A stretch of DNA of 64,000 nucleotides from SAR116 cluster bacterium AG-426-B08. Lineage in GTDB: Bacteria; Pseudomonadota; Alphaproteobacteria; Puniceispirillales; Marisalimonadaceae. Below the pieces are notes generated by a model that saw only the letters and a list, made by a program, of their open reading frames with translations, was not told the origin of the DNA and did no database searches. The stretch covers positions 3,186 through 67,185 of the forward strand of contig QCNN01000004.1 in assembly GCA_003213175.1 (NCBI GenBank), read 5' to 3'. Below are positions 2 through 28,958 of the stretch, in pieces. The stretch's first letter is position 1. The number at the start of each line of letters is the position of its first letter. The position numbers were made by a program, and so were the translations under genes.

Positions 2-1204
2 TCATCTATGATCAGAGAATTTAATCCAGATTGTTTACATATTGCTACTGAAGGTCCTTTAGGTCTTTCCGCGCGTGGATATGCTATTAGAAATGGTTTA
101 GCTTTCACCTCAGCCTATCACACAAGGTTTCCTGAATATGTTCATGCAAGAATAAAACTTCCCCTTAAAATAACTTATGCATTCTTAAGGTGGTTTCATG
201 GTAGATCTGAGTTGGTAATGGTGCCAACTGAAGAAGTAAAAAAGGATTTATTAAAATACAAAATTGGTAACCCTCAAATTTGGGCGAGAGGCGTAGACTT
301 AGAAATTTTTAAACCAAAAAAAGGAAGAAGAAAAAATAAAAAACCTATTTTATTGAATGTTGGCAGAGTAGCTATAGAAAAAAATTTAGAAGAATTTTTA
401 AAAATAGATCTTCCATATGAAAAATGGGTTGTAGGTGACGGACCTGCATTGAAAGAATTAAAGAAAAAATACCCTAAGGTTATTTTCCAGGGTGCTAAGA
501 GTAAAGGTGAATTAGAATATTACTATAACAAGGCGGATGTATTTGTTTTCCCAAGCAAAACCGACACATTTGGTTTGGTTTTATTAGAAGCTATGGCGTG
601 TGGTTTGCCAGTTGCAGCTTTCCCAATAAGTGGACCTTTAGATGTTATTGGTAACTCAGATGCAGGTATTCTGAATTCTAATTTAAAAGAAGCATGTAAG
701 AAGGCTTTGTTGATACCAAGAAAAGTGCCAAGAGAATACGCTAAAACATTTTCATGGGAATTAACAAGTAAAACATTTGAGTCTTATTTAGTAAGCATAA
801 GAGACAAAGACACTACATATAATATTGAAGACAACCCTCATAAGGGTAATACTGGGATTACAAGAGCAATTCATGCAGCTAAAAATTCTTGGTCAGGTCT
901 AACTTTTGCTCTGAGAGAAGAAAGTGCTTTTAGACAAGAAATATTATTAGTGATAATTTCATTATCTATAATTTTAGTCAGCGAAGTCAGTACTATTGAA
1001 ATATTGCTTATGATTTTTACAACTTCCCTTGTCTTAATTATAGAGCTATTAAATTCTAGTGTTGAAGCAGCTATTGATAGGATATCATTTGATTATCACG
1101 GTTTATCTAAAAGAGCTAAAGATTACGGATCCGCTGCTGTAATGTTGACATTAATTTTATGGGTCTTAATTCACGGGTTAATTTTATTTAATGATGTTCT
1201 TTAA
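2..1204 (+). CDS. Glycosyltransferase (GT-B, family 4/1-like) fused in frame to a C-terminal diacylglycerol kinase (DgkA) domain; 5' end cut by the window edge
   Basis: The frame is open from position 2, before the first ATG at 8. The N-part has GT4-type motifs (ATEGPLGL..., FPSKTDTFGLVLLEAMACGLPV). From about nt 845, GITRAIHAAKNSWSGL..AFRQE..IELLNSSVEAAIDRIS..SKRAKDYGSAAV matches E. coli-type DgkA essentially end to end (from memory). There is no stop or plausible start between the two parts. Confidence 0.8.
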   Translation, partial: SSMIREFNPDCLHIATEGPLGLSARGYAIRNGLAFTSAYHTRFPEYVHARIKLPLKITYAFLRWFHGRSELVMVPTEEVKKDLLKYKIGNPQIWARGVDLEIFKPKKGRRKNKKPILLNVGRVAIEKNLEEFLKIDLPYEKWVVGDGPALKELKKKYPKVIFQGAKSKGELEYYYNKADVFVFPSKTDTFGLVLLEAMACGLPVAAFPISGPLDVIGNSDAGILNSNLKEACKKALLIPRKVPREYAKTFSWELTSKTFESYLVSIRDKDTTYNIEDNPHKGNTGITRAIHAAKNSWSGLTFALREESAFRQEILLVIISLSIILVSEVSTIEILLMIFTTSLVLIIELLNSSVEAAIDRISFDYHGLSKRAKDYGSAAVMLTLILWVLIHGLILFNDVL

Positions 1205-3512: not shown

Positions 3513-4970
3513 ATGAATGAAGTAGCTTTAAGTTTTTATAGGAAGATAAATAAAGGTAAATTAGCAATAATCGATATTGGTTCTAATTCTATTAGACTTG
3601 TTATATATCCTCAAAATGGTAAATACCCTTTTCCGTTATTTAATGAAAGAATAAATTGTAAACTCGGTGAGGGTTTATCATTGAGTAAAAATATTTCAAG
3701 TCAATCAATTTCAAAAGCTTTGTCAGCTATAAAGCGTTTTGCATATATAATAAAAACTATGTCTGTGAAACATCAATTAATTATAGCAACTGCAGCTGTT
3801 AGAAAAGCCAAAAATGCAAAAGAATTTTTACGTCCTGCAGAAAAACTTCTTAATCATAATATTAAAATTCTGTCTGCTAAAGAGGAGGCTGATTACGCCT
3901 CTTTAGGAGTTCTTAGCAACATAAAAGTTGATAAAGGGCTTATAGCAGATTTAGGAGGAGGAAGTTTAGAACTTATTCTTATTCAAGATGGAAAAAAGAT
4001 AAAATCAACGAGTATCGATATTGGACACTTATCTCAGATTAGTAGTGAAGAAATCAGAAAAGAAATTAATAAAGTTGAATGGCTGAATAAATCTAAAGGT
4101 CTTACATTGTATGGAACAGGTGGAAGTTTTAGAGCTCTAGGATCTGCCTATATAAAGAATTATAATTATCCACTCTCATTATTGCATGGATTAAAATTCG
4201 ATATCGAAAGAGGGATAATCCTTTTGGATCAAATGTCAGACGAAAACAAAGAAGTATTAGGTATACCTCCTGGTAGAACAGATACTATTTCAACTGCAGC
4301 AAACATAATAACTCACCTGATTTTATCATCAAATGTAAAAAATATTATGATTAGTGGAACAAGTATAAGAGATGGATTGATAGCAGAATTAAATAAAGAA
4401 AATAGGATCAATCCAGATAAAGTTGCTTACTATAATGTACTTGCAAAAAACCAAAGATTTAATGGTATGCAAACTAAAATAAAAAAAATATTCAGTCCTA
4501 TTGTTCAAAAAATTGCAGATAAAGATCTTGAAAGGGTATTTAAAATTAGTACTAATCTTTCAGATATTTCTTGGGACGAACAGCCAGATATGAGAGGTAA
4601 TATTGCCGCAAACAAAATCTTATCACTACCAGTAAGAGATTTAACTCATATTGAGAGGGTATGGATGGCCAAAGTTGTTTATCACAGATATGTTGGTACT
4701 AAAGATAAACAACAAATTGATAAAAGAATAATCAATTTACTTTCAGAAAAACAAAAAATTTCATCTTATGCTATAGGTTTAGGATTAAGATTTTTATATA
4801 ATTTTAGCGCAGGATTACCAAAAAATTTGGATAATATTAAATTCAAGATTAAGAAAAATAAACTGACTTGTAAAATAAAACCTGAAGCCAAAGCTCTCAT
4901 GGATAAAGAAAACGAACGAAGATTAAAAAACTTTTCTAATGCGTGTAATTTAAATTATGAGATTATTTGA
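3513..4970 (+). CDS. ppx: Exopolyphosphatase (Ppx/GppA family)
   Basis: 485 aa. ASKHA-fold motifs IIDIGSNSIRLVIY and DLGGGSLEL are present. It lies immediately downstream of ppk. Confidence 0.9.
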   Translation: MNEVALSFYRKINKGKLAIIDIGSNSIRLVIYPQNGKYPFPLFNERINCKLGEGLSLSKNISSQSISKALSAIKRFAYIIKTMSVKHQLIIATAAVRKAKNAKEFLRPAEKLLNHNIKILSAKEEADYASLGVLSNIKVDKGLIADLGGGSLELILIQDGKKIKSTSIDIGHLSQISSEEIRKEINKVEWLNKSKGLTLYGTGGSFRALGSAYIKNYNYPLSLLHGLKFDIERGIILLDQMSDENKEVLGIPPGRTDTISTAANIITHLILSSNVKNIMISGTSIRDGLIAELNKENRINPDKVAYYNVLAKNQRFNGMQTKIKKIFSPIVQKIADKDLERVFKISTNLSDISWDEQPDMRGNIAANKILSLPVRDLTHIERVWMAKVVYHRYVGTKDKQQIDKRIINLLSEKQKISSYAIGLGLRFLYNFSAGLPKNLDNIKFKIKKNKLTCKIKPEAKALMDKENERRLKNFSNACNLNYEII

Positions 4971-5104: not shown

Positions 5105-6151
5105 CTATTTGAAATATTTTTCTTTAAATTTTAAAGCAACTGAAACTAGTAATATTAGTATAGGCACTTCAACAAGAGGACCAATAACAGTTGCGAAAGC
5201 CTCTTTTGATGCAAGGCCAAAAGTGGCAATTGAAACTGCAATAGCCAATTCAAAATTATTTGAAGCTGCTGTGAATGATAAAGAAGTAGCCTTTGGATAA
5301 TTAATATTGGCAAACCTACTGATACTAAAACTAATAAAAAACATAATTAGAAAATATATGACAAGAGGAATTGATATTGTTAAAACATCCAAAGGAAGTT
5401 TCAAAATTTCATTACCTTTTAGAGTAAACATAACAATTATTGTAAATAACAGAGCAATTAAAGTTATAGGACTTATTCGTGGAAGAAACTTGTTCTCGTA
5501 CCATTCTTCGCCATATTTCTTAACTAATAATGATCTTGTTACAAAACCTGCTAAAAATGGAATACCAAGATAAACTAGAACTATTTTAGCAATGTAAAAT
5601 ATTGAAATATCAATAATTTGACCGTCATATCCAAAAATTTCAGGCAAAATTTTTAAAAAAAACCATGCATAAGGCGCAAAGAAGATAATTTGAAAAATTG
5701 AATTAAATGCAACCAATCCTGCTACATATTCTGAACTTCCTCTAGCCAACTCATTCCAAACAAGAACCATTGCTATACATCTAGCTAAACCAATTAGTAT
5801 GACGCCAGTCATGTATTCAGGTTTATCAGAAAGAAAAGTAATAGCTAAAAAAAACATTAATGCAGGGCCTACTATCCAATTTTGAAATAAAGACAAAGCT
5901 AAGACTTTCTTATCTTTAAAAACTTCAATTATTTTTTCATATTTAACTTTTGCTAAAGGTGGATACATCATTAAAATAAGCCCTATTGCAATAGGAATAT
6001 TTGTATTACTGTAAGTTATTGAATCAAGAAATTTAGGCATATTTAGAAAAACATTACCAATAACTATACCTATAATCATTGCAAGAAATATCCATATAGT
6101 TAGGTATTTATCTAAAAATGATAGATTTAATTTTTCATATTTTCGTTTCAT
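5105..6151 (-). CDS. acr3: ACR3-family arsenite efflux permease
   Basis: 348 aa polytopic membrane protein. It has [22 protein letters not shown], and [16 protein letters not shown] containing the conserved ACR3 Cys. It starts 7 nt downstream of phnM on the same strand. Confidence 0.85.
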
Positions 6152-17280: not shown

Positions 17281-18639
17281 TTATTTTTTATCCTCTATAC
17301 CAATTAATAATCTTCTTAGTTTGGCTGACATAGTATCAATGCACATTACAGCAACTAAAACTAAAATTGCCATGTAAGCAACGTTTTCAAAATCATTTCC
17401 AGTCATTAATGCCCCAAGGAAATGTAAGCCTATACCTCCAGCACCCATTGCCCCAATAATTACGGCAGCTCTTGTGTTGGACTCTAAGTAATATAAACTT
17501 TGTGAAATGAAAATTGGTAGTATTTGTGGGATGATACCAAATCTATGTTGAAGAACTTTATTTGCACCAGTTGACTGGATACCTTCTTTATCTTTTTTAT
17601 CAGTATTTTCTATAGCTTCAGACATTAATTTACCAAGAGTACCTGTGTCTGTAAATGCGATTGCAAAAATTCCCGTAAAAAGTCCAGGACCAAAAGCTCT
17701 AAGGAATATTAAACTCCAAATTAACATATCTATTCCGCGAAGCATGTCGAAGAGTCTTCTCAGAAAAAACCTTATTGAGGAAAGTGGAGTAACATTGTAA
17801 GCAGCAAGAAAAGCTAGTGGAAGACCAACCATTGAGGCAATTAATGTTCCAAGAATGGCCATTAATAATGTTTCAACCATGGCGAATAAAACGGTGTTGT
17901 GGTGCCAAATTTCATTTTCTAAAAATTCATTTACAACAAGATTAAAATTTGAAATTTTTGGATCCACTCTGTCTTCATTAAACATAAGTGATATGGCGTC
18001 AAAAAATCCCTTTCCGACAAGAGGGCTATCGAAATCAAACCAAAAATATTTCCATCCTAACTCGTATCTATGAACTTCGACTTTTGATCCATATACCTGA
18101 AGCCTTTCATATAAAGAAGGTCTCACTTCAACCTTGTTTTCTGTTGCACGCATCCAACTTGGCAACATACTTTCCTTTCCAACATACCCATCAACATAAG
18201 GTTTACCATTTTTATTAAGCTTAAAAATGAATGGTTCATTGATATTAGGAAAATTTCTCATTTCCACTCTATTAGGAAAGAAAACAAACTGACCACCATT
18301 ATCAAAGTTAACAATTGTAGATTGATTATTTTTATTTCTAATAAGCCAAGTGGGATCATCTTTATAAACATGCCTGTGACCACCCTCAAATCTTACGTCA
18401 ATTTTCTGAGGATCTTTCCAATTCATTTTTATATGATCTTTGTGAGCGTAAATATCTAACATAAACATAGACGCTCGATCTTTATTCCACTTTTTAGCTA
18501 AGTTAGGTAGATCAAAGTGTAATATTGACCCAATTAAATAAACCAGAAACACAAATCCAGTTATAATAAGAATTCTAATATGTTTTTTATGTTTTAGATC
18601 AACTGCATCAATAACATTTTGATTTAATACTTGCTCCAT
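17281..18639 (-). CDS. phnE: PhnE phosphonate ABC permease with a ~230-aa N-terminal extension
   Basis: 452 aa. The C-terminal ~215 aa form a BPD-type permease domain (EAIENTDKKDKEGIQSTGA.., typical PhnE EAA loop). The N-terminus has one TM helix followed by a ~190-aa hydrophilic domain. Confidence 0.85.
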   Translation of the reverse strand: MEQVLNQNVIDAVDLKHKKHIRILIITGFVFLVYLIGSILHFDLPNLAKKWNKDRASMFMLDIYAHKDHIKMNWKDPQKIDVRFEGGHRHVYKDDPTWLIRNKNNQSTIVNFDNGGQFVFFPNRVEMRNFPNINEPFIFKLNKNGKPYVDGYVGKESMLPSWMRATENKVEVRPSLYERLQVYGSKVEVHRYELGWKYFWFDFDSPLVGKGFFDAISLMFNEDRVDPKISNFNLVVNEFLENEIWHHNTVLFAMVETLLMAILGTLIASMVGLPLAFLAAYNVTPLSSIRFFLRRLFDMLRGIDMLIWSLIFLRAFGPGLFTGIFAIAFTDTGTLGKLMSEAIENTDKKDKEGIQSTGANKVLQHRFGIIPQILPIFISQSLYYLESNTRAAVIIGAMGAGGIGLHFLGALMTGNDFENVAYMAILVLVAVMCIDTMSAKLRRLLIGIEDKK

Positions 18640-19493
18640 TACTTATTGTCTCCAATTAATCTACCCCTAAGAAATCTGGAGAAATAATCTAAGGAAATTA
18701 TAGTTATAACTAATAAAAACATAATAGCTATAATTTCGTCTCCATATCTAAACTGAATTACAGCAGACAATGCTTCTCCAATACCTCCAGCACCTACAAA
18801 ACCAAGGATGGTTGACGCTCTTACATTAATTTCTAACCTCAGAAGGGTGTATGAGATAAATAAAGGTACTACTTGAGGAATAACTGCAAATCTAACTCGT
18901 TGCCACCAACTTGCTCCACAAGATTGTAATCCTTCAATTGGTTTGTTATCAGCATTTTCAATAGCTTCAGAGAATAATTTTCCTAGAGCTCCAGCAGTAT
19001 GAATTACTATTGCAATAACTGCAGGTAATTCTGATTTTCCCATCAGATACAAAAATATCATAGCAATAACCAACTCAGGGAATGATCTCAGAATATCCAT
19101 GGTTCTTCTAGATAAAGTAACTATATATTGGTTTTTAATTAAATTTTTACTTGCAAACAGGCTCAAGAGAAGAGCAAAAATTGCCCCGAATAGTGTTGAA
19201 AAAAAAGCCATGTTTATTGTTGATATTAAATCTGGAAGATATTTGAATACATATGCATACCATCTCCAACCAGACTCAAATGCTTCTTTGAAGAGATCAA
19301 CAGGGTAGTCAAAAAATTTACTCAATCCCCTTTGAAAGCTTCCAGCATTATTTTCTTCTGCTATTGTAAGTCCACTGGAAAGAAGAAATAAAATAGCTAG
19401 AATGCTTATGAAAGAATAAATTAGTCTTTTAAAAGCCATGGCTTTTAGGTTTTTCTCAATTGTCTCAAAACCTAAAATATTGTCTGAATACAT
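18639..19493 (-). CDS. phnE: PhnE phosphonate ABC permease
   Basis: 284 aa with a PhnE-type EAA loop (EAIENADNKPIEGLQSCGAS). It overlaps the second phnE by 1 nt. Confidence 0.9.
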   Translation of the reverse strand: MYSDNILGFETIEKNLKAMAFKRLIYSFISILAILFLLSSGLTIAEENNAGSFQRGLSKFFDYPVDLFKEAFESGWRWYAYVFKYLPDLISTINMAFFSTLFGAIFALLLSLFASKNLIKNQYIVTLSRRTMDILRSFPELVIAMIFLYLMGKSELPAVIAIVIHTAGALGKLFSEAIENADNKPIEGLQSCGASWWQRVRFAVIPQVVPLFISYTLLRLEINVRASTILGFVGAGGIGEALSAVIQFRYGDEIIAIMFLLVITIISLDYFSRFLRGRLIGDNK

Positions 19494-19538
19494 TATATTT
19501 CCAACTATAATATTATTATTGATTGAGTTAATAAAGTA

Positions 19539-19569
19539 TGCAAAAGACAGCTAGACACTGTCTTTTGCA
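19539..19569 (-). terminator. Intra-operon stem-loop (attenuator/mRNA stabiliser) between phnD and phnE
   Basis: TGCAAAAGACAG-ctagaca-CTGTCTTTTGCA forms a perfect 12-bp stem with a 7-nt loop, 10 nt downstream of the phnD stop. On the transcribed strand it is followed by an A/T-rich tract. Confidence 0.6.
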
Positions 19570-19579
19570 TGAAAGTTAA

Positions 19580-20539
19580 TTAGCCTTTTTTCTTCTTGGC
19601 TTCTAATTTTGCTTTTCTAGCTTTTACGATCACTTCATAGAAACTATGATCAACTGGAACCCAAGCTTTTACAATACCATTTGCAACATCTTCACTGCAT
19701 TTTGGATCATTTTTGTGTATCCATTGCTTCATTCCAACCATAACGTCTCTAGCTTCTTGTGGTAATTTCTTTGGCATTACAATTGGGCCATTAGGAATTA
19801 ACTTTGATGACCAAACCTGAACAAGGTCATCCATATTTAAGATACCTTTATCAACCATTTTTCTTAAATTACCAGATGAGTATCCTTCTTCCCATTTACC
19901 AACACCAGATACCCATGTAACACCTGCATCAACGTCACCATTTAGCACAGCTAATACGTTGTTTTCATGACCACCAGAAAATTGTGTCTTTGAGAAGTAA
20001 GTATCAATATTAACGTTATATAATTCTGGTAATTCAATAGATGGAATTAGATATCCAGAAGTAGAATTAGGATCAGCAAAACCTAATTTTTTTCCTTTAA
20101 GGTCATCTAGGGATTTTATACCAGAATCTTTTCTCGCTACCATTACAGAATAATAACCAGTGTCACCAGTAGGTTGCATTCTAGTTAATATAGGTACAAC
20201 CGCATTAGGGTCTTGTAGATAAATTCCAGCATAACCAGAAGAACCAAACCAAGTGTAATCAAGGTTACCACCAAGCATTGATTCCATGGTTCCAGCATAA
20301 TCCTTAAAGGTAAACATTTTAGCTGGGACATTATATGCTTTTTCAACATAATCTTTTAGGCATCCATTTCGTGCAATGATATCCTGGGATGCTTCATCTC
20401 CAAGAAATCCAATTCTGAATTCAGGCTGAAACTTACTAAGATCCATTTTGGGTCCATCATATTTTTTGTCTGCATTAGCTGCAGAAACCATTAAGAAAGC
20501 GGTCAGTACAGCTAAAAAACTATATAATTTTTTTAACAT
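19580..20539 (-). CDS. phnD: PhnD periplasmic phosphonate-binding protein
   Basis: 319 aa with a signal peptide. It has the typical PhnD segments (FRIGFLGDE, YYSVMVARKDSGIKSLDDLKGKKLGFADPNSTSGYL). Confidence 0.9.
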   Translation of the reverse strand: MLKKLYSFLAVLTAFLMVSAANADKKYDGPKMDLSKFQPEFRIGFLGDEASQDIIARNGCLKDYVEKAYNVPAKMFTFKDYAGTMESMLGGNLDYTWFGSSGYAGIYLQDPNAVVPILTRMQPTGDTGYYSVMVARKDSGIKSLDDLKGKKLGFADPNSTSGYLIPSIELPELYNVNIDTYFSKTQFSGGHENNVLAVLNGDVDAGVTWVSGVGKWEEGYSSGNLRKMVDKGILNMDDLVQVWSSKLIPNGPIVMPKKLPQEARDVMVGMKQWIHKNDPKCSEDVANGIVKAWVPVDHSFYEVIVKARKAKLEAKKKKG

Positions 20540-20586
20540 TTATATTTCTCCATTAATTAAAGTTTAGTCCTCTATTTTTCATAAGT

Positions 20587-21396
20587 TTATGCAGTCTTCT
20601 TAAAATCTGCACTCTCCAATGAAACTGATGTCATAGTGCCTTCAAAAGCTTCGTCGGCTTCAGCACCATAAATTTCTCTGGCCTTCTGATTTGTTAGTTT
20701 TGATGGCAAATCATCAAAGACTATTTCTCCGTTCTGCATACCAATAATACGATCACAATACTGCTTTGCAGTATCAAGAGTATGTAGGTTACAAATCACA
20801 GTGATATTTTGTTCATCGTGAATTTTTCTAAGCGATTCCATAACAAGTCTGGCATTTAGAGGATCCAATGATGCTATAGGTTCATCTGCAAGGATTAGTT
20901 TAGGGTCTTGCATCATAGCTCTACATATTGCAACTCTCTGTTGCTGACCACCAGAGAGAGTTTCAGCTCTTTGTAGAGCTGTTTGCATCATACCAAATTT
21001 ATTTAATAAGTTTAGTGCTGCATGTCTTTCTTCTGATGTAAAAAGTTTTAAACTAGCACGCACAGTAGACATTTCATTTAACTTGCCTAGCATCACGTTT
21101 GTTAGCACATCCAACCTTGGAACAAGATTAAACTGTTGAAATATCATGGCACAATTTTTTTGCCATTCGAGTTTATCCTTTTTCTTAAAATCTAATATAT
21201 TTTGATTTTGGAAAAGAATTTCACCTGAGGTGGCATCAGTTAGTCTATTTATTGTTCTTAATAATGTAGATTTACCTGCACCTGATCTTCCAATAATTCC
21301 AATCATTGAGGAATTTTCAACATTTATTGAAACATTATTAACGGCTTTAACTTGATCAAAATATTTTGAAATATTAATTATTTTAAGCATAAACAA
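20587..21396 (-). CDS. phnC: PhnC phosphonate ABC transporter ATP-binding protein
   Basis: 269 aa with Walker A GRSGAGKST, signature LSGGQQQRVAI and Walker B ILADEP. It is the first gene of phnCDEE. Confidence 0.9.
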   Translation of the reverse strand: MFMLKIINISKYFDQVKAVNNVSINVENSSMIGIIGRSGAGKSTLLRTINRLTDATSGEILFQNQNILDFKKKDKLEWQKNCAMIFQQFNLVPRLDVLTNVMLGKLNEMSTVRASLKLFTSEERHAALNLLNKFGMMQTALQRAETLSGGQQQRVAICRAMMQDPKLILADEPIASLDPLNARLVMESLRKIHDEQNITVICNLHTLDTAKQYCDRIIGMQNGEIVFDDLPSKLTNQKAREIYGAEADEAFEGTMTSVSLESADFKKTA

Positions 21397-21586
21397 TCTC
21401 CATGATTCTTTACTTTTTGATCTATAAATATTTCAGTTTTGTTTAATTTTTATTTCTAAATTATTAAACAAAATTTTATTTATTAATTTCAATAGGTTAA
21501 TGGAAATTAAAAAAATTATTTCAAATTCTAATTTTAAATAAATAATTAAAAAAAAATTTGTTTTTGAAAATTAGAGAATCACCTTG

Positions 21587-22159
21587 TTAATTTTTCCAAT
21601 TTAAAACAAAGTTTTTTTGTTCATCTGTATCAATTGATCCTGGTCGATATTTTCTTATATATTGAACAGCATCTTTTGTGGATATTCCTAATTTAGCCAA
21701 TAATAATGATGCGATTGTACCGGTTCTACCTAATCCTGCCTTGCAATGTATTATAATATTTTTTTCTTCTTTTAAAAATCTTTCTAAATCTGAGAGAAGT
21801 AAATTTAACTTCAATAGTGAATTTTTGGTAGGTATATTAAAGTCAATGATTGGAAAATGAAACCAAACGAAATTATTTAATTTAATTTCCTTTATTAAAT
21901 TATCACATCCAAGTGATTTTAATTCTGATATTTCTAAAAGTGATACAATAATATCAATGTGATGATTTTTTAAAATTTTTAGTGTGTTCTCAATTCTAAT
22001 CTTTTGGTTATTAGAGTCTAATAGGGTACCAGGACAACCACATAACCCTAATTTTCCAAAATTTTGAGAATAATGAAATTTGCTAAAATAAATATCTTTT
22101 AATGGTATCCATGTAATTAGATCATCTTTTTGTAATTCATATGTTAAATTAACTACCAT
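21587..22159 (-). CDS. Cys-based (dual-specificity/PTP-like) phosphatase
   Basis: 190 aa with the catalytic loop HCKAGLGRTGT (C-x5-R). No signal peptide. Confidence 0.75.
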   Translation of the reverse strand: MVVNLTYELQKDDLITWIPLKDIYFSKFHYSQNFGKLGLCGCPGTLLDSNNQKIRIENTLKILKNHHIDIIVSLLEISELKSLGCDNLIKEIKLNNFVWFHFPIIDFNIPTKNSLLKLNLLLSDLERFLKEEKNIIIHCKAGLGRTGTIASLLLAKLGISTKDAVQYIRKYRPGSIDTDEQKNFVLNWKN

Positions 22160-23714: not shown

Positions 23715-23933
23715 TTAACATTAAAATTTTATCATTATTTGAAATGATTAATTATGTAATTTGATTTTTTTATTTTAAGTATTTTTAAATATCAAAAGCA
23801 CATATCAAGCATTCAAATAAATATATATACCTAATAAATAGTACCATAAATATTTTTCTATGAAATTACAATAAATATCAAGCTGATTTCCATAAAGTCA
23901 ATTGTCATTTCAATAATTGAACCCTGGTCCGTG

Positions 23934-24010
23934 TTCCATGGACTACGGTCAATGGGCAGACCACCCACTGACCATTGACCATTGTTGATTAGGAAAAGGG
24001 TGCAGTAACC
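23934..24010 (+). repeat. 77-bp GC-rich direct repeat, copy 1
   Basis: TTCCATGGACTACGGTCAATGGGCAGACCACCCACTGACCATTGACCATTGTTGATTAGGAAAAGGGTGCAGTAACC is identical at 77/77 positions to 26325-26401. It contains a 9-bp stem (23947-23955 with 23972-23980). Confidence 0.95.
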
Positions 24011-24218
24011 TCCCCCACTTTAAAAATTTTTTGGGACAAGATTATAATTTATCTATTTATTGATTGAAATTAAAAACTTACGTATTACTTCATCTGACAT
24101 CCTATCTTCATTACAATTAAATCTTTATAAAAATTTACAATCAATTAAAATTTTATCAAAAGTTCAAAAGTAAGCTTATCATTTGATAAGACTAAATTAA
24201 AATCTTAGGTTAAAATTA

Positions 24219-24761
24219 GTGAAAAAGAACTTAATAAAAATAGCATATTCATTTGCAGAGGAACGCCACTATGGTCAAGTAAGAAAAGGAAATAAAGGTA
24301 TTCCTTATTTTGAACATATTAAAGAGGTTGTAGCACTTGTAAAAATTTCATCAACAAAAAAAAATGATTCGATCATTATAGCATCTTACCTTCACGATGT
24401 TGTTGAAGATCGCAAAGCAACAAGAAAAGAAATTAAAGATTTATTTGGACACGATGTTGTTGAACTAGTTGAAGAAATGACAGATAAACCCTTCTGTTCT
24501 GAAGCCGAAAGAAGATCAAATCAAATAATGGCGGCTAAAATTATGTCAATTGACGCCTCCTTAATTAAACTTGCGGATAAAATATCTAATATAGAGAATT
24601 TATTTCATGACCCGCCTATATCTTGGAGTAAAAAAGAAATAATTGATTATATAAAATGGGGTCAAGAAGTTGTAAACAATTTACCATATAAAGATATGAA
24701 ATTAATGAAACGCTTTGATAAAATTTGTTTTCAACTTAATAAAAAATTATCTAGTAACTAA
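24219..24761 (+). CDS. HD-domain hydrolase of the SpoT/Mesh1 (small alarmone hydrolase) type
   Basis: 180 aa with a GTG start. AEERHYGQVRKGNKGIPYFEHIKEV...YLHDVVEDRKATRKEIKDLFG..VVELVEEMTD is collinear with the (p)ppGpp-hydrolase HD domain of RelA/SpoT homologs. There is no synthetase domain. Confidence 0.75.
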   Translation: MKKNLIKIAYSFAEERHYGQVRKGNKGIPYFEHIKEVVALVKISSTKKNDSIIIASYLHDVVEDRKATRKEIKDLFGHDVVELVEEMTDKPFCSEAERRSNQIMAAKIMSIDASLIKLADKISNIENLFHDPPISWSKKEIIDYIKWGQEVVNNLPYKDMKLMKRFDKICFQLNKKLSSN

Positions 24762-24835
24762 AACAGCTTTAAAATAAAGAACGTAATATTTTTTTAATAT
24801 TTGTTAAGTATATTATGCTTAAGGAAGGAGTTTAT

Positions 24836-25095
24836 ATGCTTTTTCATCTTAAATATACGCATAGTGCAGAGAGTTATTTAAAAATAATAAAGAAACAAGT
24901 GAGATTTTTAAAAATCGTCTTCGTAAAGCAAATGAGTATGGAGTAACAATTAAATTCAATGTTGGTAACTCACTCGAACATGCAATTTTTATGCTTATAG
25001 AAACTGATACTGCTGAGGGTGTTCATGAATGGCTGGACCCTATAGTTGATTTAGGCCATATCGAACTTACGTCAGTAATTGAAAAGAAGCTTTGA
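24836..25095 (+). pseudogene. Frameshifted small (~86 aa) alpha+beta protein gene
   Basis: A strong SD (AAGGAAGGAG) lies 5 nt before the ATG at 24836. MLFHLKYTHSAES... runs into a stop. A second frame, open from 24865, reads CRELFKNNKETSEIFKNRLRKANEYGVTIKFNVGNSLEHAIFMLIETDTAEGVHEWLDPIVDLGHIELTSVIEKKL and stops at 25093-25095. The frame change lies near 24858-24866. Confidence 0.6.
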
Positions 25096-25227
25096 TAGAA
25101 ATAAAAATAATATATCTTATTCACCAAGAAAAATGGTAGATCTACTTTAAACTTTACACAACTTAACCATTGCTAAATAATTGGCAGATTACCTTTTAAA
25201 AGTATATTGTTTAAATAAAAGAAAATT

Positions 25228-26268
25228 ATGAAAGCTCTAATTTTAAAATATATAAACATAGAAAATTTTAATTTTAAATCAGTTTGGACTATAGTTTTGT
25301 TATTACCATTATTGGTATTTATCTTTATTCCAGATGATTTTAGCTCAATTATTACTTTTGCATCGAAAGCTTTGATGGGGACTATCCCTTTTATATTATT
25401 TGCAGTTAGTTTGGTAGCCTATTTAAAAGCAAGTGGTGCTGAAAGTTTAGTATCAAAAGCATTTAAAGGTAAAGAAATAAAAACTATTTTTATTGCAACT
25501 CTTGTTGGTGGACTTGCTCCCTTCTGTTCATGTGAAGTTATCCCATTTATAGCAAGTATGCTTGCTTTGGGTGTCCCACTTTCAGCTGTAATGGCTTTCT
25601 GGTTGTCATCCCCATTAATTGATCCTCCAGCATTATTAATCACTGCAAGTGCATTAAGTTGGGATTATGCAATTGCGAAAACAGTATCAGCTATGGCAAT
25701 TGGATTAATTGGTGGTTTTGGTATTTATATTTTATCAAAATTTGGAATGTTCTCTAATCCACTAAAACAGCTAAATGGATCTGGATGTGGGTCTTGTTGT
25801 GTTACTAAAGACCCTTTTAATCAAAAACTTGAATTAAAATTTTGGAATAATGCTTTAAGAATAAATATCTTCAAAGAAGAATTTAGATCAAACGGATTAT
25901 TTTTATTGAAATGGTTATCTCTGGCTTATCTAATTGAGGCATTAATGGTTCAATACCTTTCAGCACAAGTTATTGGAAATTTTTTGTCTGGTGATGGTTT
26001 GTCTTCAATTATAATAGGTGCGTTTGCTGGGGTGCCAGCTTATTTAAATTCATATGCAGCCCCTGCAATTGTATCTGGACTAATCGAACAAGGATTAAGT
26101 TCTGGAGGTGCTATGGCATTCTTAGTTGGTGGTGCAATAAGTTCAATTCCTGCAATGACAGCCGTTTGGTCTTTAGTTAATCGCTCAACATTTATTGCTT
26201 ATCTTGTATTTGGTTTTGGTGGGGCTATTTTATGTGGAATAGCTTTTCAAATTTATATGAATTTTTAA
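25228..26268 (+). CDS. COG0701/UPF0718 permease (ArsP-like)
   Basis: 346 aa polytopic membrane protein. It has the family-typical GGLAPFCSCEVIPF motif and a Cys-rich central loop (GSGCGSCCV). Confidence 0.75.
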   Translation: MKALILKYINIENFNFKSVWTIVLLLPLLVFIFIPDDFSSIITFASKALMGTIPFILFAVSLVAYLKASGAESLVSKAFKGKEIKTIFIATLVGGLAPFCSCEVIPFIASMLALGVPLSAVMAFWLSSPLIDPPALLITASALSWDYAIAKTVSAMAIGLIGGFGIYILSKFGMFSNPLKQLNGSGCGSCCVTKDPFNQKLELKFWNNALRINIFKEEFRSNGLFLLKWLSLAYLIEALMVQYLSAQVIGNFLSGDGLSSIIIGAFAGVPAYLNSYAAPAIVSGLIEQGLSSGGAMAFLVGGAISSIPAMTAVWSLVNRSTFIAYLVFGFGGAILCGIAFQIYMNF

Positions 26269-26324
26269 CTTCGATCTTTATTTTGCCTGAGATGATAAGA
26301 GATATTGATTAACCTACATAAATA

Positions 26325-26401
26325 TTCCATGGACTACGGTCAATGGGCAGACCACCCACTGACCATTGACCATTGTTGATTAGGAAAAGGGTGCAGTAAC
26401 C
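26325..26401 (+). repeat. 77-bp GC-rich direct repeat, copy 2
   Basis: Identical to 23934-24010. The flanks diverge immediately outside the block (GTG vs ATA on the left, T vs C on the right). Confidence 0.95.
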
Positions 26402-26560
26402 CCGGACCCATGGGCTGTGTCTACTGTAGACAAGGTTGTAGACAAGCTTTTTATCATTGACGGACTCAATGTATTTGCTAAGCTATTGATATTGTTGGAG
26501 TTTAGATAAAACCATTGCTCTGGTTAGGCATCACACCTCATCTCGAGCGCGCCACATTTA
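26402..26560 (+). other. ORF-less GC-rich block of unknown nature (candidate structured RNA or gene relic)
   Basis: No ORF of 60 aa or more in any frame. G+C is visibly far above the neighbourhood. It contains a hairpin TGTCTA-ctg-TAGACA (26418-26432), a tandem TGTAGACAAG at 26425-26434 and 26437-26446, and CTCGAGCGCGCCAC near 26541-26554. Confidence 0.3.
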
Positions 26561-28697: not shown

Positions 28698-28958
28698 ATG
28701 AATACTCTTATTATTGCAAAAATGAGTAAAGTTACTTTCGACGAATGGAAAGTTAAATTTGACGAAGACTCAGAGGTTCAATCCAAAATGATGAGAAACA
28801 CTAGAGTTGGTAAGGTTGACGATAATACTGCAATGGTGTTTACTGAAGTTTTTAATCCTGAAATGGTTCAAGAATTTATGAATTCAGATGATTTTAAAAA
28901 GATGGAAACTAACCTTGGACTTTCACACGAGGTTTATAAAGTTGAAAAAATAAGTTAG
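28698..28958 (+). CDS. Small hypothetical alpha+beta protein (DUF3764-like)
   Basis: 86 aa with an SD (AAGGA) upstream. MNTLIIAKMSKVTFDEWKVKFDED...AMVFTEVFNPEMVQEFM resembles small marine-bacterial/cyanobacterial ferredoxin-fold proteins. Confidence 0.6.
   Translation: MNTLIIAKMSKVTFDEWKVKFDEDSEVQSKMMRNTRVGKVDDNTAMVFTEVFNPEMVQEFMNSDDFKKMETNLGLSHEVYKVEKIS

Follow-up and report, generated by a model that had tools for sequence, protein, structure and literature searches.

Arrays of genes at tRNA genes have been described in streamlined aquatic bacteria, as the tycheposons of Prochlorococcus (10.1101/2020.12.28.424599) and the additive islands of Methylophilaceae (PMC10872708). The repeat that recurs in these arrays is a tRNA fragment of ∼20–40 nt, such as the final 20 bp of tRNA-Lys (10.1101/2020.12.28.424599; PMC10872708). 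Here we analyse a 64-kb stretch of DNA from SAR116 cluster bacterium AG-426-B08 (contig QCNN01000004.1, positions 3,186 to 67,185), hereafter the window, in which a perfect 77-nt direct repeat (the 77-mer, or EL) occupies 23934–24010 and 26325–26401 and brackets a gene cassette. Such a layout also invites comparison with systems outside tRNA-linked islands. Sedentary chromosomal integrons combine IntI, attI and species-specific attC arrays, such as the repeats of Vibrio cholerae. In lambda-type attP, a core is flanked by arm-type integrase sites. The pdif modules of Acinetobacter plasmids are gene modules flanked by XerC/XerD sites, which are 28 bp long, alternate in orientation and are served by the host XerCD. 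Our data indicate that the 77-mer is very probably part of a DNA joint in a tRNA-linked cassette array of low-GC SAR116. Additive islands/tycheposons and sedentary chromosomal integrons are the closest systems, and the element lacks defining features of each. A literature search on DUF6538, SAR116 islands and Levibacter found no description of this joint element.

On the best reading, the 77-mer, a left arm and a repeat pair to its right together form an att-like DNA joint of ∼200 bp at cassette boundaries. Additive islands and tycheposons share several traits with this system: a variable island that is anchored at a tRNA gene and carries a tyrosine recombinase (in related loci, not in the window), cargo blocks in tandem with a direct repeat recurring between them, empty as well as occupied forms in one population, and a partial tRNA 3′ end, here at the end of a conserved segment that we call the tail. 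In contrast to those systems, the SAR116 boundaries consist of a 77–95-nt non-tRNA element with a hairpin, the tRNA fragment is found once, at the tail end, and the integrase gene lies between ∼62-nt copies of the tRNA end that are inverted rather than direct. Chromosomal integrons share with the SAR116 locus a fixed platform beside a tyrosine recombinase, the same cassette in different array positions, one-strand arrays and a lineage-conserved repeat of 60–140 nt with an imperfect palindrome. However, the SAR116 recombinase is not IntI, its gene points towards the array and not away from it, there are no R/L boxes (no RYYYAAC/GTTRRRY pair) and the end blocks are non-complementary. The SAR116 cassettes are multi-gene, in both orientations and with promoter-like sites of their own, whereas integron cassettes are mostly single promoterless open reading frames (ORFs). 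The SAR116 joints also differ in having no single crossover point and a platform tied to tRNA genes.

The joint site is found empty and occupied in one population

The features of the split site are as follows, with the strand where one applies.

23918–23933: left arm TGAACCCTGGTCCGTG, which holds CCCTGGTCCG; found left of most copies in other genomes
23934–24010: joint copy 1 (77-mer), perfect repeat and profile match
23936–23955: 5′ block CCATGGA-CTACGG-TCAATGG, near-invariant in 105 distinct copies
23947–23980: variable imperfect palindrome, folding better than shuffles on both strands
23985–24009: 3′ block TTGATTAGGAAAAGGGTGCAGTAAC, near-invariant, conserved in all copies
24011–26324, forward strand: cassette A, assigned by Pfam; the same cassette recurs in several contexts
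26325–26401: joint copy 2, perfect repeat and profile match
26402–26554: tail, 153 nt, 88–100% identical across species, holding the right arm CGGACCCATGGG at 26403–26414
26425–26446: pair of TGTAGACAAG direct repeats, 12 nt apart, that may be arm-type sites for the integrase
26536–26554, forward strand: copy of the tRNA-Arg(ACG) 3′ end, CCTCATCTCGAGCGCGCCA, by comparison with the tRNA-Arg gene of locus L010

To establish the state of this site in related bacteria, we compared contigs that encode an identical (100%) His_Phos phosphatase and belong to the same population (loci are cited by our own numbers). In L014 and L010, the left flank, a single 77-mer and the right flank are contiguous, that is, the site is unsplit and empty. 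The unsplit site of L014 is 99.5–100% identical to the window, and that of L010 differs by three substitutions in the 77-mer and one in the tail. Cassette A occupies the site in the window, L008, L009, L011 and L023; in L009 a second cassette (B) follows it, past a joint copy of 81% identity. L013 has the same left side and a different right side, and L007, L012, L015 and L016 carry no joint element. The unsplit form was also present in other SAR116 species (L017, L022, L030 and L038). The polymorphism between empty and occupied sites is thus directly observed. Similarity to the right flank of the window ends precisely 153 nt past copy 2, at 26554, and the ancestral unit is therefore 23918–24010 plus 26402–26554. 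An earlier note, made from the window alone, had proposed that a cassette inserted into a pre-existing element or attB and that unsplit homologs should exist; such homologs exist in the same population and in other SAR116 species, and both flanks are conserved parts of the unsplit site.

In the four contigs that carry no joint element, similarity to the window stops at 23724, which is 10 nt ahead of the start codon of the phosphatase gene. In place of the joint they have a cluster of thiolase, hydrolase and dehydrogenase genes, with no DNA-level match to the window.

The repeat itself is far from what chance would give, as a 34-nt piece of the 77-mer had two matches in the window against an expectation of 0. 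An nhmmer search with a profile of 105 sequences found joint copy 1 at E=3e-27, and the two copies were the window total. CCCTGGTCCG (23922–23931) ends 2 nt ahead of copy 1, and CGGACCCATGGG starts 1 nt past copy 2. The outer 15-nt flanks pair in a duplex of −15.9 kcal/mol, as opposed to −3.5 to +0.4 kcal/mol for the remaining three flank combinations. No pair among 20,000 random window 15-mer pairs matched this value, and 1.8% of composition-matched shuffles did. When left arm, one 77-mer and right arm are joined, the resulting 102-nt unit folds at −42.4 kcal/mol into a closing helix, a 9-bp GGTCAATGG/CCATTGACC hairpin and a GGGT/ACCC hairpin; the reverse strand is slightly more stable (−45.4 kcal/mol). 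Repeat, flanks and hairpins as described in the earlier note were all recovered, its flank pairing exceeds that of random pairs, and its three-helix fold could be reproduced computationally. CCATGG-centred motifs are repeated in the left arm, the 5′ block of the 77-mer, the right arm in the tail and the 45 bases past the tRNA. As this motif is both palindromic and repeated, part of the flank complementarity arises automatically.

Joints lie at the edges of mobile cassettes across SAR116

To survey the joint more widely, we scanned representative genomes of 185,579 species, and metagenomes, with a two-block pattern. The genomes yielded 38 loci, almost all of them SAR116/Puniceispirillales (low-GC SAR116), and the metagenomes 112 loci, ∼20 of which are chance matches in unrelated GC-rich contigs. 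Pooled, both scans gave ∼150 copies, 105 of them distinct. The joints always sit at edges between variable gene blocks. In 25 of the 26 loci with at least two copies, all copies were on the same strand, at spacings of 0.9–7.6 kb; in the complete ‘Ca. Levibacter’ genome (Uisw_134_01), the two copies, at ∼842.8 and ∼848.9 kb, are separated by 6.1 kb. One-strand arrays are therefore a direct observation. The sole inverted pair is that of L137, with joints at 59–127 (+) and 5401–5469 (−), possibly an inversion between joints. One of the L137 joints, like the joints beside a tRNA-Leu-type integrase (L168–L171), has the spacer CTAAGG in place of CTACGG. Joint copies were also met in assemblies labelled Cellvibrionales and Hellea (L042 and L051). 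For L042, mis-binning is likelier than transfer, because its joint and tail start are identical to those of a SAR116 contig (L022).

Partners on the two sides of a joint are reshuffled, and this too is observed directly: 129 joints are combinations of 62 left classes and 41 right classes. To follow a single cassette, we collected contigs that encode identical HD and ArsP proteins. Cassette A had at least four left and at least five right neighbours. To its left lie the phosphatase, the f10–f17 genes of a tRNA-Ser hot spot (L182, a different genome), the end of another cassette (L177) or a 246-aa gene (L180). To its right lie cassette B (L009, L020, L176, L178 and L182) or the tail, followed by a 348-aa gene (window), a DUF805 gene (L023), the integrase (L177) or cupin genes (L173). 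Cassettes comprise from one to seven or more genes on both strands, with promoter-like sites of their own.

The tail connects the joint to tRNA genes and an integrase

The tail, carried by at least 33 of the recovered joints, comes after the joint nearest the integrase. Its final 19 nt copy the tRNA-Arg(ACG) 3′ end and are inverted relative to the full tRNA-Arg gene in L010. In other genomes, a gene for a 377-aa integrase with DUF6538 and Phage_integrase domains (Pfam) lies at a fixed distance past the tail, on the opposite strand. The order tail, integrase, tRNA-Arg(ACG) was found in nine loci (L010, L017, L020, L022, L068, L095, L148, L167 and L177), and a second chromosomal site, at tRNA-Leu(GAG), has an integrase of 81% identity with the same architecture, tail and 77-mer copy. 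At that site, the tail of L168 ends in the tRNA-Leu(GAG) 3′ end in place of that of tRNA-Arg. Linkage of joint, tail, integrase and tRNA is hence observed directly, and the tyrosine recombinase stands beside a tRNA at the island edge in L010, L017, L020 and L167 (tRNA-Arg) and in L168–L171 (tRNA-Leu). At further hot spots, the 77-mer lies 110–190 nt from the 3′ ends of tRNA-Ser(GGA) and of tRNA-Met(CAT), the latter gene following 5S rRNA.

Among 23 distinct tail contexts, ten lead to the integrase and 13 to other sequence that starts directly after CCA. This switch after CCA implies that the tail end is a second recombination joint. At the 26554/26555 junction the window continues into a gene for a 348-aa coiled-coil membrane protein, as the otherwise identical L023 and L172 do into the DUF805 gene, L173 into cupin genes, and L010 and L177 into the integrase.

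The integrase gene of L010 is flanked by ∼62-nt inverted repeats, which consist of the tRNA end and 45 downstream bases. They lie at 4256–4313 and 5505–5566; such repeats also occur in L017, L020 and L168, and the copies co-vary per locus. This arrangement suggests either that the integrase segment can invert or that it marks a site of recombination centred on a palindrome (CCATGG/AACCATGGTT). The TGTAGACAAG pair is common to the tail and the integrase start codon region, where the near-identical pair TGTAGACAAGGATGTATACAAG overlaps the start codon in L010, L167 and L168. L017 holds a second, decayed module at 1–385: a tail end with CCA is followed ∼150 nt on by a pseudo-tRNA-Arg of 83% identity, the integrase-upstream repeats are degraded, and the relative orientation is opposite to that of the active copy.

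The integrase has thousands of marine homologues. In NCBIfam it showed weak XerC/XerD/XerA-level matches, far under the cut-off, and matched no integron-integrase model. A phage origin was considered and rejected: there was no match in viral contigs or GenBank phages, and phage relatives of the integrase are only ∼30% identical.

Anatomy of the joint

The 5′ block is laid out as 7-nt imperfect inverted repeats with a 6-nt spacer between them, the layout of a tyrosine-recombinase core, and is a candidate core-type recombinase site (23936–23955) judged by its sequence. The palindrome that begins within this block (23947–23980) folds at −14.0 and −15.9 kcal/mol on its two strands, compared with −5.7 kcal/mol for shuffles. 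The hairpin conserved across relatives is GGTCA-A-TGGG / CCCA-C-TGACC, at 23947–23973 in the window. In its general form, GGTCA..GGG/CCC..TGACC, it is present throughout the relatives and better kept than the alternative 9-bp hairpin of the earlier note, GGTCAATGG / CCATTGACC, which pairs 23947–23955 with 23972–23980. Joint length elsewhere is 77–95 nt and varies by single bases.

To the left of most copies stands a conserved, non-coding left arm, TGAACCCTGGTCC(G/A)TG. In the window no ORF terminates in this arm (23918–23933), and the right end of the cassette has no equivalent of it (26309–26324). A coding sequence running into the joint was rejected, as no ORF stops at the conserved TGA and the length varies by single bases. 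To the right of the copies are several sequence classes, mostly an AT-rich spacer followed by two ∼10-nt direct repeats: TGTAGACAAG twice, TTGTGGGTA twice or GTGGGACAA twice, depending on the class, with inverted versions far to the left. Putative integrase-binding repeat pairs include TGTAGACAAG / TGTGGGTA.

Like a lambda-type attP, the joint measures ∼200 bp overall and has short inverted repeats in a core-like layout around a 6-nt spacer. Pairs of ∼10-nt direct repeats stand to one side of it, with inverted copies opposite, and arm sites could be bound by the additional N-terminal domain of the integrase (DUF6538). In contrast to lambda, both exchange partners in SAR116 look complex, with no simple attB, and breakpoints also fall ∼50 nt off, in the 3′ block. 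With pdif modules the system shares small gene modules bounded by site copies, in many contexts and with no dedicated recombinase alongside, but the SAR116 joints exceed pdif sites in length, form direct repeats and are tied to an integrase module of their own.

How cassettes may be exchanged at the joint

We propose that, in flexible islands linked to tRNA genes, each boundary of a cassette is marked by the joint. Recombination between a resident joint and the joint on a presumably circular 2.3-kb cassette would have inserted 2,391 bp in the window. Such an insertion would leave a joint copy on each side and split the resident left arm (23918–23933) from the tail (26402–26554). The tail, in turn, would be the arm of a second att site, whose core would be the tRNA-Arg 3′-end copy and which would belong to the DUF6538-family tyrosine integrase. 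Working in trans in this genome, the integrase may catalyse joint-by-joint exchange at CCATGGA-CTACGG-TCAATGG, with the hairpin and the 3′ block as putative accessory sites. We consider the chances evenly balanced that the DUF6538 integrase catalyses exchange at the joint. A broader version, which we put forward tentatively and hold to be somewhat improbable as a whole, is that the integrase at the tRNA, flanked by inverted tRNA-end copies, may be invertible and services the ∼200-bp landing pad as a previously undescribed integron-like gene-capture platform, with pad-bearing multi-gene cassettes inserted, excised and swapped among three or more tRNA-linked hot spots and across species.

Where the exchanges occurred can be read from joints that share one side. 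In joints with the same left and different right sides, the first divergence fell at positions 16–21 in four independent cases, including the right end of cassette A; several joints thus change partner inside positions 1–21. The left joint of cassette A in L181, L182, L187 and L190 differs over its first ∼50 nt and is identical from TTGATTAGG on.

Several observations weigh against integrase-driven exchange at a single site in the joint. There is no single crossover point, as the right joint of cassette A switches in the 5′ block and the left joint in the 3′ block; breakpoints in both invariant blocks weaken a one-point site-specific model and keep homologous recombination in play. The identity block that belongs to the integrase itself consists of the tRNA 3′ end and 45 further nt and is distinct from the 77-mer, on which its action is putative. 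A variant internal to the 77-mer matches neither flank cleanly. The 64-kb window has no match to an integrase, a tRNA, a tmRNA or any Rfam family, so that both integrase and tRNA are missing from it, and a junction of circular cassette A (right end, joint, left end) was absent among the recovered joints. Furthermore, the invariance of the 5′ and 3′ blocks is partly imposed by the search patterns.

In an alternative with the same joint anatomy, RecA-type homologous recombination between short identical blocks exchanges the cassettes and the integrase acts on the tRNA-like core only. Conservation of the joints would then reflect the loss of mobility of any cassette without the identical blocks. 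We regard this as a serious rival, although less likely than not. It accounts for breakpoints in the invariant blocks of 20 nt and ∼27 nt, which are the sole long identities between diverged copies, and for the internal variant that is consistent with neither flank; the perfect 77-nt repeats around the window cassette, the scar-free empty sites elsewhere, the lack of an integrase in the window and beside many arrays, and the inverted joint pair of L137 also fit. However, blocks of 20–27 nt are at or under the usual minimum for efficient RecA exchange, and the same-left/different-right joints cluster at the earliest polymorphic positions. Nor does the alternative explain why the left arm is conserved, why direct and inverted repeat pairs flank the joint, why a hairpin is retained or why linkage to an integrase module is tight at two different tRNAs.

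An integron attC-like mode, in which the joint is recombined as folded single-stranded DNA with the conserved hairpin as substrate, appears improbable. Its appeal lies in the two conserved ends that enclose a variable imperfect palindrome, in the arrays on one strand and in the behaviour of the hairpin. Every variant keeps a hairpin through one of two alternative 3′ partners, with counts of 47 for C/TT, 29 for T/AA, 7 for T/TT and 1 for C/AA, and the 3′-side changes are mostly C to T, which preserves G.T pairs. Such a C-to-T bias is, however, also expected from mutation pressure in an AT-rich genome. Moreover, the integrase is not IntI and reaches only weak XerC/XerD-level matches in NCBIfam, R''/R' RYYYAAC/GTTRRRY boxes are absent, the conserved ends lack mutual complementarity, the strands fold about equally and the cassettes are multi-gene with genes on either strand.

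Covariation does not support a structured RNA

The earlier note had read the reconstructed unit as a three-way junction resembling a riboswitch or small RNA. In this reading, a structured RNA gene or cis-regulatory RNA of ∼100–250 nt, possibly with a tRNA-like 3′ end, was split by the insertion, which we judge very unlikely. The region is GC-richer than its surroundings, has a stable fold and contains a conserved block that ends ..GCGC(A/G)CCA, as such an RNA might. Nonetheless, an Rfam search at gathering thresholds gave 0 matches over the whole window, E-value searches with both halves and the unsplit L014 unit gave chance-level matches only (E≥0.5), so that neither split nor unsplit form had a match, and ARAGORN found 0 tRNA or tmRNA genes in the window. 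The GC-rich block and CCA end had raised the possibility of a tmRNA, RNase P, signal recognition particle RNA or tRNA-like gene, which the Rfam and ARAGORN results rejected. The tRNA-like CCA end is a copy of the adjoining tRNA and changes along with it, becoming that of tRNA-Leu at another locus.

In 37 distinct unsplit units the three helices were 84% paired, purely via sequence conservation: their covariation score of 0.047, compared with 0.046 in shuffles, was reached by 201 of 500 shuffles. A lack of covariation for the three helices was among the outcomes that the earlier note had itself named as refuting, and for the RNA reading this outcome was obtained. The alternative conserved hairpin likewise had no covariation above shuffles, and RNAalifold preferred other helices, with 0 compensatory pairs. 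The closing helix was 73% paired in the same units. A compensatory change in L020 (CCTTGG/CCAAGG) and perfect pairing in L038 and L133 favour it, and uncompensated changes in L055, L107, L148 and L153 count against it. At many joints that still carry the right arm, the left arm is missing or different, and the arm in the tail is conserved regardless of the left side.

The hairpins gave the same picture. The 9-bp hairpin of the earlier note has two central A.A mismatches in 35 of the 105 distinct copies. The 5′ strand GGTCAATGGG is nearly unvarying in the 105 copies, and none of the copies shows two-sided compensatory changes in the hairpins. Copies that have lost the 9-bp hairpin tend to carry the base that strengthens the alternative one (47/29/7/1, as counted above), so that some hairpin is always kept. 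Assigning a strand through G.U pairs gave a 13-bp hairpin on the reverse strand of the window, and some variants pair on the forward strand only; across the 105 copies both strands fold about equally well. A constant hairpin and equal folding of the strands are compatible with a DNA palindrome as much as with anything else. Genes next to the joint belong to many families, on either strand, with no constant partner. The joint also occurs in many copies per genome, restricted to cassette boundaries, and split copies are common in the population, so that an intact unit is dispensable. With no Rfam match, no covariation and no constant neighbour gene, the riboswitch or small-RNA proposal found no support, and the joint element should not be labelled as either in annotation.

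A selfish miniature repeat (MITE- or REP-like), present by chance in intergenic DNA, is multi-copy, non-coding and ∼200 bp with inverted repeat motifs on both sides, but has next to no likelihood here, as copies are not dispersed but form island joints near tRNA genes on one strand, just two copies in 64 kb bracket the cassette exactly, target-site duplications were not seen, and cassettes lie between copies or inside a unit, not beside whole units.

Cargo and neighbourhood in the window

Cassette A carries three genes assigned by Pfam.

24219–24761, forward strand: HD_4 hydrolase
24836–25095, forward strand: DUF3303-like gene, broken by a 1-nt deletion
25228–26268, forward strand: ArsP_1 permease

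The deletion in the DUF3303-like gene lies near 24876 by comparison with L009 and L011, where the gene is intact at 93 aa; in L008 a further substitution leaves a 62-aa product. The broken gene is either a pseudogene or a sequencing error. To the left of the joint are genes for a SixA-like histidine phosphatase (His_Phos), a TPR protein, a dual-specificity phosphatase and a phosphonate ABC transporter. This transporter and two different phosphatase genes (17281–22159) adjoin the island edge and may be either cargo of the flexible island or core genes.

An 86-aa protein of family f17 is encoded at 28698–28958, 2 kb to the right of the tail, with no detectable adjoining joint; at the tRNA-Ser hot spot of L031, L182 and L187, f17 lies directly to the left of a joint. 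A tblastn match to the integrase at 38.6 kb was weak, fell inside a MatE transporter gene and was discarded. The window is 99–100% identical to the SAR116 single-cell contigs QCNS01000001.1 and CACNGS010000005.1 (order Puniceispirillales).

Implications for gene exchange in SAR116

Few bacterial groups are as abundant in surface ocean water as SAR116, and gene exchange in its streamlined genomes is an open question. The cargo seen here includes arsenic-type permeases and phosphatases, and a phosphonate-uptake cluster adjoins the joint. If the joint works as proposed, the 77-mer would be a sequence tag for the exact boundaries of mobile cassettes in metagenomes, and the DUF6538 integrase, the joint and the tRNA-like core would be a directly testable candidate enzyme with its substrates. 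The system would then provide a third model of within-population cargo shuffling, next to integrons and tycheposons.

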